Made by a program: the position numbers and the translations under genes
The notes under the pieces: model-generated
What the model saw: only the letters and a program-made list of their open reading frames with translations
Databases searched by the model: none
Told to the model about the DNA's origin: nothing
In this document: piece by piece, positions 1,752 through 21,420 of the stretch
How positions within the stretch are numbered: position 1 is the first letter of the stretch
Layout of the letters: each line of letters opens with the position of its first letter
Source of the DNA: Nitrospirales bacterium
Lineage (GTDB): Bacteria; Nitrospirota; Nitrospiria; Nitrospirales; UBA8639
Direction of reading: 5' to 3'
Length of the DNA: 64,000 nt
Assembly (NCBI GenBank): GCA_963555755.3
Contig: OY820905.2
Coordinates: forward strand, 1,408,001-1,472,000

Positions 1752-1818
1752 ATGTGGCATGGCAAGACCTGACCCACAACCATAAGTCAATACTCATGCC
1801 TGACCCCTTACCCTGACC
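1752..1818 (+). repeat. CCTGACCCC-family repeats: type A (ATGTGGCANKGCAAGACCTGACCC) plus type B (ATAAGTCAATACTCATGCCTGACCCCTTA)
   Basis: Type A recurs at 2822, 14410, 18182, 19701 and 21274 and inverted at 2607-2668 and 18066. Type B recurs identically at 2763 and 21368. Confidence 0.85.
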
Positions 1819-1898
1819 AACCCGGTGATCCCCAACCCGACGAGAGTCTAGCAATTTAGAGTGCACTATGTGTAAGATATTGTGTAAAGGAGAAGCCT

Positions 1899-2098
1899 GT
1901 GCCCACAAATCTTGCCCTCAATGACAAATTAGTCAAAGAAGCGCAGAAGCTCGGCGGACATTCAACCAAGCGTGCAGCCGTTAATCAGGCCCTAACTGAA
2001 TATGTCATGCGGCGGAAACAAAAAAAAATCTGGAGTTGTTTGGGAAACTTGACTGGGATCCGACATACGATTACAAGAAAGCCCGGCCTCGCGGGTGA
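1899..2098 (+). pseudogene. vapB: VapB-type antitoxin, frameshifted
   Basis: MPTNLALNDKLVKEAQKLGGHSTKRAAVNQAL...; one base is missing after the poly-A at ~2030. The other frame continues LELFGKLDWDPTYDYKKARPRG to TGA at 2098, overlapping the vapC GTG. Confidence 0.75.
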
Positions 2099-2493
2099 GA
2101 ACATTAGTTGACACGTCCGTCTAGTCCCTTGCCTTTCGCAAACAAGGTCCCGCCCAACATCCCGCAGTAATTCAACTCGCCACCCTAATTGAAGAAGAAG
2201 AAGAAATCGTCCTCATTGGTTTAATCATACAAGAATTTTTACAAGCCTTTCCCAACGAACCCACAGTTGAAAAAGTCACAGCCTACCTAGGCGTGTTTCC
2301 GATCATCAAATTGGAACGGATGGATTTCATTGAGGCCGCTCGGCTATTCCGCCGCAGCCGAGCCAAAGGATTTACGGTCGCCACACCCGATTGCCAAATT
2401 GCCGCTGCTGCCATCTCCTATGATTGCTCGCTACTCACCACCGATCAAGATTTTCATCGCCTGACCACCCTGTGCCCTTTGCAATTGTTGTAA
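2095..2493 (+). pseudogene. vapC: VapC PIN toxin with in-frame TAG at codon 10
   Basis: GTG 2095: MRTLVDTSV*SLAFRK...QEFLQ...DCQIAAAAISYDCSLLTTDQDF. TAG at 2122-2124 occupies the usual Trp of DTSVW. Confidence 0.8.
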
Positions 2494-2606
2494 ATTCCTC
2501 TCGCCCTGAGCTGTGAAAATGAATAAGCGAGCGAATGGCGAGCGGCAAGGCGAAGGATCTCCGCTGGGCTTTCGAGACTTCACGTAGGTTTTCGGGTTGG
2601 TGCTCT

Positions 2607-2846
2607 GGCTGAGGGTCAGGTCTTGCAGGGCTGAGGGCTGAGGGTCAGGCTGAGGGGCAGGTCTTGCAGCAATACATTTTGGTTGACCTTACACGTGAGG
2701 TTCCTGCTTTAACCATTCCTTATCAATTTTAGAGAAAACGGCCGTGTTGGGATAATTTCCTCATAAGTCAATACTCATGCCTGACCCCTTACCTGAAATA
2801 AAAACCAAAACTCTCTTCCCTATGTGGCACTGCAAGACCTGACCCC
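2607..2846. repeat. Inverted pair of type A repeats enclosing a ~90-bp conserved spacer plus a type B repeat (REPIN-like)
   Basis: GGGTCAGGTCTTGCAG ... TGCAAGACCTGACCCC. The spacer CAATACATTTTGGTTGACCTTACACGTGAGGTTCCTGCTTTAACCATTCCT...AGAGAAAACGGCCGTGTTGGGATA recurs at 18080-18181. Confidence 0.8.
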
Positions 2847-18065: not shown

Positions 18066-18202
18066 GGTCAGGTCTTGCAGCAATACATTTTGGTTGACCT
18101 TACACGTGAGGTTCCTGCTTTAACCATTCCTGCAAAAAAAGTATCAATTTCCAAAGGCAGAGAAAACGGCCGTGTTGGGATATGGCATTGCAAGACCTGA
18201 CC

Positions 18203-19670
18203 CAATACTGTTCACTTAGATATCTTCGGTGGTTTGATGGATGGTGTCCAGTCCATTTGCGCAACGGGCGGTCTCGGGCGTTTGTACGGTGCGTATGGAG
18301 AGTTTCGGCGTTTCACCATCCTCGGCTTGATTTTTCCCCGGCTGGATTCACACAACAGTTTTGCCGTCGCCTCAAACAGCAGCCGATACCATGTTTTTTG
18401 GCGCTCAGGGGGGAAGGGCCCCAGATTGGGGCAGGGTTCGACGCACTAACTGCACCGTGGCCGTAAAAGATACTGTGCGGTCCGGGATGTCTGCCTGGGT
18501 GGCCCCTTGATACATCAACCAGCGCACGGCGTAGTGGGCCATCACCCATCCGTAGAACTCTTGACGCACCAACTCTGGCGTTTTACTGCGCAGGACGCGA
18601 CGACGTTGCCCCAGGTGCGTCTTCAGCTCATCAAACACCAATTCCACCTCCCAGCGCTCGTGATACAGTTGAGCCAGGTCCTGGGCGGGTGCGCCTTGGT
18701 CATCCAGCAGCGTGGTGACGAGACGGTACAGCGGTTCGCTATTGGGCCCCTGCGGTAAGACATACTCAATCACCCTGAGGGCGATCCCATCGATTCGCTT
18801 TCTTCTGGCGCGTTCACTGGGGTACAGACGGCTCAGGTACGAGCCATCGTCCAACAGCTTGTCAACCGGAAGGAGCAAGTGCTTCGGCATGCGCCAGAGC
18901 AGTTGCGCTCCGGTCTGAAGGCCGGCCTGCCAATGGGCGTACCCGACAAAGCCGCGATCGGCCATGCAGAGCATGTCGGGCGTGAGGCGACGCACCAAGG
19001 GCGCGGCCACCTCCCATTCGGCCTGCTTATAGGCCCCTAGTTCGGCATCCAAAATGGCGTGACTGGCACATTCCGTCAAAATGGCGCACTGGCTTGGGGG
19101 TAGCCGGCCTGCCCGGTTCGGCTCCCTGGGTACCCAAAGGCTTGCACAGTGGCTTCCTCATCCGGGACCTCAAAGTTGGAGCCATCTATCGCGACGAGTC
19201 GGTAGCCTGCAAAAAAGGCGTGGGCATGCTCTGGACGAGCCAACGGGCGCAAGCAGCGCTGCCCAATGGCTTTCAGCGCCTGCCACGTCAGCCGTGAGCG
19301 GGCTTTGCTGATGGCGGATTTGACAACGCTCACGGGAGCCACAGGTTGCTGGTCTTGCCAGGCCAGCCCTTGGGCCACAGCGGCAAACACCGCTTCGTAC
19401 GCGGCCTCGCTGTATAAGCTCAACGCCATGGTGTAGTACACCACGGCAGAAGCGGGAAAGGTGCGGACACGTTCACTGTTACAATGATGTGCGTCAAGTT
19501 CTTCGTTGATGATGGCCACCGGAAAGGCACGAGCCAGTAATCCCGTGCTCAAATAATCCGCCAATCGAGCCCCCGCCCCCAAGCCGACTTTCTTTCTTGC
19601 CATGTTGCCTCCTCCCAGATTACGTGTGGAGGCGAAGTATAACAGATTTTCATCTAAGTGAACAGTATTG
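18203..19670 (-). mobile_element. IS4-family IS, copy 2 (diverged; 1-bp deletion)
   Basis: Same TIRs; TSD AGACCTGACC (18193-18202, 19671-19680); 1468 bp versus 1469 bp for the other copies. Confidence 0.95.
18405..19603 (-). pseudogene. IS4 transposase copy 2, frameshifted near 19091
   Basis: GGCGCACTGGCTT versus GGCGCACTGGGCTT in copies 1 and 3; split into ORFs 19076.. and 18405..19079. Confidence 0.85.
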
Positions 19671-19715
19671 AGACCTGACCCCCAACCTGACCCCCAACCG
19701 TTGCAAGACCTGACC

Positions 19716-21184
19716 CAATACTGTTCACTTAGATATCTTCGGTGGTTTGATGGATGGTGTCCAGTCAATTTGCGCAACGGGCGGTCTCGGACGTTTGTAC
19801 GGTGCGTATGGAGAGTTTCGGCGTTTCACCATCCTCGGCTTGATTTTTCCACGACTGGATTCACACAACAGTTTCGCCGTCGCCTCAAACAGCAGCCGAT
19901 ACCATGTTTTTTGGCGCTCAGGGGGGAAGGGCCCCAGATTGGGGCAGGGTTCGACGCACTAACTGCACCGTGGCCGTAAAAGATACCGTGCGGTCAGGGA
20001 TGTCTGCCTGGGTGGCCCCTTGATACATCAACCAGCGCACGGCGTAGTGGGCCATCACCCATCCGTAGAACTCTTGACGCACCAACTCTGGCGTTTTACT
20101 GCGCAGGACGCGACGACGTTGCCTCAGGTGCGTCTTCAGCTCATCAAACACCAATTCCACCTCCCAGCGCTCGTGATACAGTTGAGCCAGGTCCTGGGCG
20201 GGTGCGCCTTGGTCATCCAGCAGCGTGGTGACGAGACGGTACAGCGGTTCGCTATTGGGCCCCTGCGGTAAGACATACTCAATCACCCTGATGGCGATCC
20301 CATCAATTCGCTTTCTTCTGGCGCGTTCACTGGGATACAGATGGCTCAGGTACGAGCCATCGTCCAACAGCTTGTCAACTGGAAGGATCAAGCTCTTCGG
20401 CATGCGCCAGAGTAGTTGCGCTCCGGTCTGAAGGCCGGCCTGCCAATGGGCGTACCCGACAAAGCCGCGATCGGCCATGCAGAGCATGTCGGGCGTGAGG
20501 CGACGCACCAAGGGCGCGGCCACCTCCCATTCGGCCTGCTTATAGGCCCCTAGTTCGGCATCCAAAATGGCGTGACTGGCACATTCCGTCAAAATGGCGC
20601 ACTGGGCTTGGGGGTAGCCGGCCTGCCCGGTTCGGCTCCCTGGGTACCCAAAGGCTTGCACATTGGCTTCCTCATCCGGGACCTCAAAGTTGGAGCCATC
20701 TATCGCGACGAGTCGGTAGCCTGCAAAAAAGGCGTGGGCATGCTCTGGACGAGCCAACGGGCGCAAGCAGCGCTGTCCAATGGCTTTCAGCGCCTTCCAC
20801 GTCAGCCGTGAGCGGGCTTTGCTGATGGCTGATTTGACAACGGTCACGGGAGCAACGGGTTTGTGGTCTTTCCATGCCAGCCCTTGGGCCACAGCGGCAA
20901 ACACCGCTTCGTACGCGGCCTCGCTGTATAAGCTCAACGCCATGGTGTAGTACACCACGGCAGAAGCGGGAAAGGTGCGGACACGTTCACTGTTACAATG
21001 ATGTGCGTCAAGTTCTTCGTTGATGATGGCCACCGGAAAGGCACGAGCCAGTAATCCCGTGCTCAAATAATCCGCCAATCGAGCCCCCGCCCCCAAGCCG
21101 ACTTTCTTTCTTGCCATGTTGCCTCCTCCCAGATTACGTGTGGAGGCGAAGTATAACAGATTTTCATCTAAGTGAACAGTATTG
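19716..21184 (-). mobile_element. IS4-family IS, copy 3
   Basis: Same TIRs; TSD AGACCTGACC (19706-19715, 21185-21194); nearly identical to copy 1. Confidence 0.95.
19918..21117 (-). CDS. IS4-family DDE transposase (copy 3)
   Basis: Same protein as copy 1 from MARKKVG; the ORF-track extension to 21228 lies upstream of the RBS and partly outside the IS. Confidence 0.93.
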   Translation of the reverse strand: MARKKVGLGAGARLADYLSTGLLARAFPVAIINEELDAHHCNSERVRTFPASAVVYYTMALSLYSEAAYEAVFAAVAQGLAWKDHKPVAPVTVVKSAISKARSRLTWKALKAIGQRCLRPLARPEHAHAFFAGYRLVAIDGSNFEVPDEEANVQAFGYPGSRTGQAGYPQAQCAILTECASHAILDAELGAYKQAEWEVAAPLVRRLTPDMLCMADRGFVGYAHWQAGLQTGAQLLWRMPKSLILPVDKLLDDGSYLSHLYPSERARRKRIDGIAIRVIEYVLPQGPNSEPLYRLVTTLLDDQGAPAQDLAQLYHERWEVELVFDELKTHLRQRRRVLRSKTPELVRQEFYGWVMAHYAVRWLMYQGATQADIPDRTVSFTATVQLVRRTLPQSGALPP

Positions 21185-21420
21185 AGACCTGACCCCCAAC
21201 CCCCCCCCCCAACACTGACCCCCAACACTCTGGAAACCCAGCCACGGCTAGGACAAACGAAAAATATATTAAGTCAAGACCTGACCTCTCCCATTTGGCT
21301 ATTGGAGTGAAATATTCAACAGCCCCTGAATGCAATAACACAGGCCTGACCCTATTATGACCCTATTATAAGTCAATACTCATGCCTGACCCCTTATCCA
21401 AATGGAACCTTGCAAGACCC
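21185..21420 (+). repeat. Cluster of CCTGACCCC-family repeats, including a type B copy at 21368-21396
   Basis: AGACCTGACCCCC, CTGACCCCC, CAAGACCTGACC, CCTGACCCTATTATGACCCTATT, ATAAGTCAATACTCATGCCTGACCCCTTA, TTGCAAGACCCC. Confidence 0.8.

Follow-up and report, generated by a model that had tools for sequence, protein, structure and literature searches.

Toxin-antitoxin (TA) gene pairs, an RHS gene and several mobile elements lie downstream of glmS in a Nitrospirales bacterium, interspersed with copies of two short motifs, type A and type B. The region occupies one side of the window, the stretch of 64,000 nucleotides analysed here (G000:C1:1408001-1472000), in a near-complete genome of 4.62 Mb assembled in two contigs. 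A sequence-only reading had taken the motifs for recombination sites of a gene-capture platform distinct from attC integrons. They are the terminal inverted repeats (TIRs) of TIRtrons, Y1/HUH elements whose ends are spread over the whole genome, and the region was probably built by the joining of single TIRtron ends to new DNA. The genome under study is called G000; G002 is a congener and G011 belongs to another genus. Positions without a prefix are those of the window, and published papers marked by a PMC accession are cited from the parts of their text that were consulted.

Layout of the region downstream of glmS

The left edge holds the right part of a non-autonomous TIR element of about 125 bp (M...K type; 957-1076, plus strand), whose tip points toward higB and whose left end lies beyond the insertion sequence (IS) at the window start. 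The plus-strand genes higB (1149-1442) and higA (1458-1730) are followed by a type A end (1752-1780) and a type B end with a partial tip copy (1782-1820, the 29-mer itself at 1782-1810), both on the plus strand and recognised by motif match. The first vapBC pair (1899-2493, plus strand) is broken in the assembly by a frameshift in vapB near 2028 and a stop in vapC near 2123. All four metagenome runs compared differ from the assembly at these places; the lesions represent either strain-specific decay or an assembly error. Next to it, on the minus strand, a type A miniature element (2607-2760, 84% identical to 18066-18182) keeps its left end, with tandem tip copies, and its interior; an exact type B 29-mer (2763-2791, plus strand) occupies the expected place of its type A right end. 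Another type A end follows by motif match at 2822-2851 on the plus strand.

The middle of the region is taken up by larger elements. An IS66-type element (2891-5295, minus strand), identified by Pfam and by genome self-comparison, is multi-copy and unrelated to the motif. The gene for an RHS/FG-GAP protein of 1966 aa (5293-11193, minus strand) has a frame that ends at this element, and a paralog at C1:232-239 kb. A DUF433 gene (12195-12419) and its downstream partner open reading frame (ORF) span 11888-12419 on the minus strand, and a multi-copy DDE element with DDE_Tnp_1 and DDE_Tnp_1_assoc matches, which we take to be ISAs1-like, covers 12471-14375 on the plus strand. The two IS elements at 2891-5295 and 12471-14375 are not related to one another, and each has a Druantia DruA (PF14236) ORF or domain ahead of its transposase.

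To the right, a type A end on the plus strand (14410-15912) is interrupted by the first copy of an IS4-family element (14433-15901), flanked by a 10-bp target duplication. Between two facing TIR tips lies a minus-strand gene fragment (15940-16086), which had been described as a cut gene and indeed consists of the final 48 codons of a gene of 83 aa found whole, at 79% identity, in genome G010. In that genome (G010:C2, L209, locus 1393-1800) a TIRtron left end also faces the 3' end of the whole gene, about 90 bp off. A group II intron with a reverse transcriptase (RT)/maturase (16092-18065, minus strand) sits in a TIR tip at TGACC^C; this is the left tip of a type A miniature element that is complete and has its TIRs facing outward (18066-18203), and its right tip holds the second IS4 copy (18203-19670). 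The stretch 19671-21225 consists of remnants of tips, an incomplete type A end and the third IS4 copy (19716-21184), and an F-type end piece is stacked with a C-type end at 21205-21365; a third type B 29-mer with a type A remnant follows at 21368-21420, all on the plus strand. The second vapBC pair (21490-22097, minus strand) is succeeded by a degenerate TIR-like end with a tip copy (22240-22285, plus strand), recognised by eye outside the motif sets. The core gene glmS (23107-24936, minus strand) bounds the region. Between vapB and glmS, about six tandem units of about 91 bp occupy 22286-22835.

The names given earlier to the cargo mostly agree with Pfam, which returns HigB, HTH_3, VapB, PIN, RHS/SpvB/FG-GAP, DUF433 and the second VapB/PIN; the candidate DUF5615 ORF has no Pfam match. 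The motifs had been said to sit at cargo borders. Several do, but neither the cut gene nor the RHS frame that ends at the IS66-type element is a whole cassette.

Number and genomic spread of the motifs

How many copies are there, and are they special to this locus? The type B 29-mer occurs exactly at 1782, 2763 and 21368, as three identical copies had been reported, and nowhere else on C1. Type A in the form first written has a single copy in the window (2822) and two on C1; without its last C it has three copies in the window (1752, 2822 and 14410) and ten on C1. When up to two mismatches are allowed, type A has four matches in the window and 18 on C1, and the type B core has three and 22. 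The sequence CCTGACCCC has seven copies in the window and 99 in the genome. Clustering of the DNA upstream of TGACC-like words yields many sibling families.

The initial 17 motif sets gave 403 matches in the genome against three in the reversed genome, which places the motifs far above chance. Four sets (J, P, L and O), which account for 136 of the 403 matches, were judged by eye to be probable ends of other elements and were excluded before any statistics; the final catalogue comprises 267 ends in 13 motif sets. Thirteen of these ends lie at 0.9-22.4 kb of the window and none at 23.1-64 kb. The motifs had been thought confined to the DNA downstream of glmS; this holds inside the window and fails for the genome, where they are locally dense yet not peculiar to the glmS flank. 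Within 1752-21420, 22 tip-like sites were counted by eye, including three IS4 target duplications and six tandem tip duplications. The figure of about 15 copies given by the sequence-only reading can stand if other tip families and tip copies are counted, not for types A and B alone, and the four of the 22 sites that lie on the minus strand had been missed.

Identity of the repeats

The genome has 17 matches to Y1_Tnp, and most of the long ones are bracketed by outward-facing repeats with TGACCCC-like tips. Type B is the outward TIR on both sides of a 311-aa gene (C1:1146674-1147606) in an intact element at C1:1146.65-1147.66 kb, 262 kb away; the product matches Y1_Tnp above the cut-off, and Bac_DnaA_C at an E value of 1e-5, which is below the cut-off of that family. 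Type A is the outward TIR on both sides of a 283-aa gene in the congener G002, with Y1_Tnp and HTH_23/HTH_28 matches all above cut-off. Both transposases keep H-x-H at 60-62 and Y119-x-x-L-N-P. In G000 the type A gene has decayed to a 59% C-terminal remnant (C1:359846-360155) that ends at a type A end. A RAYT-like Y1/HUH transposase had been suggested as the driver, with no cognate enzyme in the window; both points stand, since both motifs frame Y1_Tnp genes and no Y1 match lies in the window. The search to the left that had been called for found no Y1 gene in 14 kb among ATG-started ORFs of at least 100 aa.

On the other strand both motifs read GGGGTCAG, which matches GGGGWSAS, the TIR consensus given by Di Nocera, De Gregorio and Rocco (2013; PMC3733652). 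These authors coined the name TIRtrons, saw TIRs also as single, dimeric and grouped repeats, and left the binding and cleavage of the TIR by the TIRYT as future work. Quentin et al. (2018; PMC6006769) assigned 20 of 26 TIRtron examples to TnpA-REP subclass 2.1, every one with Bac_DnaA_C, HTH_23 or HTH_28; this subclass is the second largest transposase group in their survey. Types A and B are thus TIRs of TIRtrons, and by domains and TIR the elements fit subclass 2.1. The likeness extends to the Y1 gene with a C-terminal Bac_DnaA_C or HTH_23/28 between TIRs with GGGGWSAS, and to the single, dimeric and grouped TIRs. The related HUH enzymes of REP/REPIN repeats (RAYT, TnpA-REP) serve one repeat family per enzyme family. 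In contrast to those repeats, types A and B are outward TIRs of a gene, do not fold into a REP-like hairpin (z of -0.25, -0.33 and +1.28) and lack the GTAG foot.

The tip as a fixed breakpoint

The bases past TGACC are biased out to about +7, and 86% of the 231 intact ends have C or T at that position. Tandem tip copies of 11-41 nt, mostly 11-13 nt, are present at 72 of these 231 ends, compared with 28 of the 2278 other TGACCC sites that served as a control. Their number varies among metagenome contigs of near-identical strains: at the type B end (1794) one of four runs, X1, has an additional tip copy of 18 nt, and at 2613-2648 three of four runs lack 34 nt of tip copy. The outer boundary of the ends is fixed, some 6-7 nt past TGACC.

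Comparison with relatives points to the same place. Among 101 ends in relatives, 52 were uninformative, eight were colinear and eight matched only inward to the tip; in the other 33 the outer flank matched G000. In 15 of these 33 the flank begins at +4 to +17 past the motif, where about one would be expected by chance (our own estimate, from an even spread over about 600 positions). At 13 of the 15 junctions there is no tip-like motif at the corresponding place in G000. In genome G006 the sequence joined to a type B tip comes from 417 bp farther out; vapC is gone and the upstream gene, the antitoxin, is spared. Tips also cut an RHS gene, a transporter ATPase gene and the small gene of the window.

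Junctions of this kind are the signature of a transposon end being attached to arbitrary DNA, not of recombination between two sites. Site-by-site cassette recombination is contradicted because 13 of 15 junctions are tipless at the partner, one "cassette" is a cut gene, and attC sites are absent. The proposal that the motifs are local, two-partner sites of a new capture platform is not supported: they are TIRs found genome-wide, and their partners mostly carry no second site and often lie inside genes.

Two loci concern rearrangement near tips. At G002:C46:1-6100 (L202) a type A TIRtron and miniature elements split an RHS gene into reordered pieces, and a 300-bp C-terminal piece lies between facing tips; a shuffling of RHS tips by the TIRYT is possible. 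The gene next to glmS in genome G003 sits 213 kb from glmS in G000 (C1:1217884 versus window 23107), with TIR ends near both, and this separation is possibly a TIR-linked rearrangement.

Cargo that moves with the ends

Several cargo genes recur elsewhere together with an end. The higBA pair and its type A end are 91% identical in G011, where the match halts at the tip, and where a different TIR end precedes the unit and different DNA follows it. The first vapBC pair has an 85% copy in G002, where about 30-40 bp separate it from the type A end ahead of it, and other DNA lies upstream of that end. A 95.8% copy of the second pair (C1:222033-222767) lies between two direct TIR ends, with one border exactly at a tip. 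The segment 21205-21360 recurs at C1:1572609-1572764 (156 bp, 99.4%), and the match stops at the C tip. A vapBC-bearing unit of 2.33 kb (C1:2470115-2472448) is duplicated at 97.9%, both copies halting at +7 of a C tip; its other border is not a TIR. Free tips in G000 carry 108 shared segments, and 93 of these terminate no more than 20 nt from the tip.

A second hot spot at C1:221-246 kb also holds paralogs of the RHS and vapBC genes of the window.

Arrays, orientation and toxin-antitoxin genes

Do the ends form true arrays? Ends of different families cluster at 0.40 against 0.17 in 200 shuffles (maximum 0.32), and their neighbours within 5 kb are direct in 42 cases, outward in ten and inward in 15. 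Ten clusters have at least three solo ends; seven are wholly of one orientation and three have one discordant end. The definition of a solo end removes outward pairs, and the concordance is therefore inflated. Solo ends lie on the C-rich strand in 75 of 119 cases, and the clusters show a replichore bias (46 versus 25, p=0.017). With this bias GGGGTCAG would fall on the template of the lagging strand, which is what one would expect of a single-strand HUH enzyme. Of the 70 TA genes counted (PhdYeFM matches and one PIN match on C2 were left out), 19 have an end no farther than 1 kb away; the figure is 16 of 66 when the window is omitted, and 6.8% of random places are this close to an end. The ends of three ordinary IS families, taken as a control, lie as near to TA genes in nine of 70 cases against 5.3%. 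The enrichment is therefore about fourfold for TIR ends and 2.4-fold for ordinary IS ends.

It could be proposed from these patterns that the region is a true cassette platform after all, in which direct TIR ends act like attC and the TIRYT excises cargo and downstream end as a single-stranded circle, to be reinserted at another tip. The shared orientation of solo clusters, the mixed-family clustering and the nearness of TA genes would follow, and the geometry suits higBA with its type A end, the type A end with the first vapBC pair, and the second copy of vapBC pair 2. Against it stand the tipless partner places and the genes cut by tips; moreover, part of the shared orientation comes from the replichore bias and from the way solo ends were defined, and ordinary IS ends are enriched beside TA genes as well. 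Contig joints between direct ends in the metagenomes fall below the 31-letter rule on one side or fit repeats elsewhere. We consider this alternative unlikely.

These joints were rejected as proof of circles or cassette loss: 1807 to 2822 (side of 21 letters), 2787 to 21368 (21), 2845 to 14410 (24) and 2792 to 21168 (28) are all too short, and the joint from 2615 to 18067 (75) is accounted for by the miniature element's other copy. The search of assembled metagenome contigs for circles or tip-to-tip loss hence gave no usable joint. Three metagenomes cover the RHS block poorly, which was not taken as evidence.

Alternatively, the ends could be passive debris, left when host repair or IS deletions pared two-ended insertions down to solo ends in a tolerant region that cargo reached independently. 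Many ends do stand in outward pairs (same-family neighbours no more than 150 bp apart are outward in 33 cases, direct in 28 and inward in two), the region is crowded with unrelated IS elements, and 51 of the 70 TA genes have no end within 1 kb. Distant TA homologs, at 78% identity or less, have no catalogued TIR adjoining them among the matches listed. Host repair, by contrast, would not fix one break at +6/+7, as is seen in the tip copies, the 417-bp deletion and the 2.33-kb duplicate, and the three identical type B ends of 29 nt exist only in this region. The explanation by debris is quite improbable.

Integron and glmS-linked alternatives

An integron integrase above the curated cut-off is encoded at C1:318997-319857, the only full match in the genome, and the region lies downstream of glmS. 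The region might on these grounds be a CALIN, an orphan array of attC sites derived from the integron of this genome, or else a Tn7-like island next to glmS; the recurrence of 71 bp of the glmS 3' end (90%) at C1:244808-244878 in the second hot spot, fused to an RHS fragment, could be read in the same sense. The integrase is, however, 1.09 Mb from the region, although a CALIN needs no integrase beside it, and our regular-expression and fold screen found no attC site in 900-23100, against two palindromic sites near the integrase as a control; the earlier statement that the region is not an attC integron is borne out. No Tn7 protein (tnsABCD) was seen among the ORFs of the region that were scanned or read, though no search aimed at the family was made. 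In G003, glmS is directly followed by core genes, which in G000 lie 213 kb away. Both forms of this alternative are extremely improbable and largely refuted.

The locus is not conserved, because G003 has those core genes beside glmS and G002 has another small gene pair with one F-type end facing glmS; the idea of a conserved array at glmS was rejected on this ground.

The true integron at C1:318997-345000, with its integrase and two attC-like palindromes, contains several TIR ends, two of which directly adjoin C-terminal integrase fragments. The array of set N lies mostly inside this integron region, with some copies abutting intI fragments, and was not used as evidence for cassettes.

Elements that insert at the tips

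The IS4-family element is 1469 bp long and has 21 copies on C1, three of them in the region. Its 10-bp target duplication is present in 21 of 21 copies, in either orientation, and the target is tip-like in 20; no close relative of its transposase was found in 100 genomes of the order at an E value of 1e-60 or less.

The group II introns belong to two subfamilies that target TGACC^C in at least five TIR families. TGACC precedes all 17 of the 5' ends found, of which 15 were assigned by eye to catalogued TIR families and two were judged TIR-like, and CC or CT comes after all 18 of the 3' ends; YTGACCCY occurs 867 times in the genome. The 5' ends of the introns are non-canonical (GTTCGC and GCATGC). 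In a comparison of intron classes the best solved relatives score alike, and strict cut-offs gave no close RT relative in 100 genomes of the order. A comparable case is RmInt2 in ISRm17 (PMC4615759): there, too, a group II intron that has no endonuclease domain homes to inverted repeats belonging to a different mobile element. The element invaded in the present genome is of the Y1 kind, and at least five TIR families, with only TGACC^C in common, serve as targets.

A proposed model of one-ended transposition

How could single ends come to lie beside so many different genes? We propose that a TIRYT working in trans would introduce a nick into one strand, 6-7 nt beyond TGACC on its outer side, and that the nicked end would be joined to a target that needs no second site, the other break being variable. 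Short pieces reinserted nearby would give the tip copies of 11-41 nt and the solo ends of 29 nt. Long pieces would carry inner cargo, for which sizes from 156 bp to 2.3 kb are seen, and joining to distant flank DNA would lead to adjacent deletions and rearrangements. Local events on the same strand would leave ends aligned in one direction. TA pairs would persist since loss of the whole pair is selected against, which is also how superintegrons retain their TA pairs. The IS4 element and the group II intron would insert at the tips and enlarge the region afterwards. This one-ended HUH transposition is the probable origin of the accessory hot spot.

Several points weigh against this model. The 15 tip breakpoints in relatives are not independent, as five come from the one G002 contig in which type A ends cut up and rearrange an RHS gene, and both ends of one element were counted twice. 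Pieces of miniature elements make up many of the 93 shared segments. A clean pair of filled and empty sites for a whole TIRtron was not found in the comparisons. The higBA pair of G003 (82%) is without an end upstream of it and keeps no more than a truncated trace of type A. A new inner neighbour with no upstream tip, such as the type B end at 2763 in the place of the type A right end of the miniature element, or higA beside a type A end, is left unexplained by tip joining alone. The cut, its strand and the action of a TIRYT across families are parts of the model that we infer. G000 no longer has an intact type A enzyme, and cross-family action in trans is therefore assumed.

A wider proposal, tentative and somewhat doubtful, treats TIRtron ends as a distributed gene-shuffling system. 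TIRYTs would peel off units of cargo with one end and drop them beside ends of any family, and same-direction arrays of TA, RHS and accessory genes would grow and reorder without an integrase. Such a system would be an HUH counterpart of integrons, with its own IS4 and intron parasites.

Relation to known systems and significance

Integrons with attC sites, including superintegrons and CALINs, hold small accessory genes between same-direction sites, are rich in TA genes and attract group II introns. The region resembles them in all these respects, and differs in that it has no attC, no tyrosine recombinase nearby, mostly siteless partner DNA and genes that are cut. REP/REPIN repeats have reportedly been used as targets by IS elements. 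One-ended transposition of IS91/ISCR and ISEcp1 involves one fixed end and a variable other end, with adjacent DNA carried along. The proposed one-ended joining of TIRtrons would work like these systems by analogy only, as IS91 uses a Y2 HUH enzyme and has non-identical ends and ISEcp1 is a DDE element.

Beside the picocyanobacterial prochlorosin genes, TnpA-REP subclass 2.1 has been proposed to diversify neighbouring genes (bioRxiv 10.1101/2020.03.09.984088). The proposal of neighbour-gene diversification is the same; unlike here, inverted repeats were not found, and the authors later noted that there was no strong causal evidence. Compared with the parts consulted of the two TIRtron papers (PMC3733652 and PMC6006769), the present genome adds a terminus that is fixed, duplicated tips, stacks in which several families point the same way, carriage of cargo, and targeting by IS4 and introns. 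The literature searched, mostly outside subscription journals and in the portions of main text consulted, holds no description of a terminus, tip duplication, cargo carriage or parasite targeting for TIRtrons.

The element family is known and named, and its mode of action is likely undescribed; the papers found on subclass 2.1 give, in the parts consulted, no cut site or mechanism. The genome yields predictions on these points, namely a terminus about 6-7 nt outside TGACC, siteless joining targets and the carriage of kilobases of inner DNA. The IS4 element and the introns serve as natural markers of TIRtron ends. If one-ended carriage is true, TIRtrons would be an overlooked route of accessory-gene shuffling, and the integrase-free, cassette-like arrays of many genomes would share one explanation.

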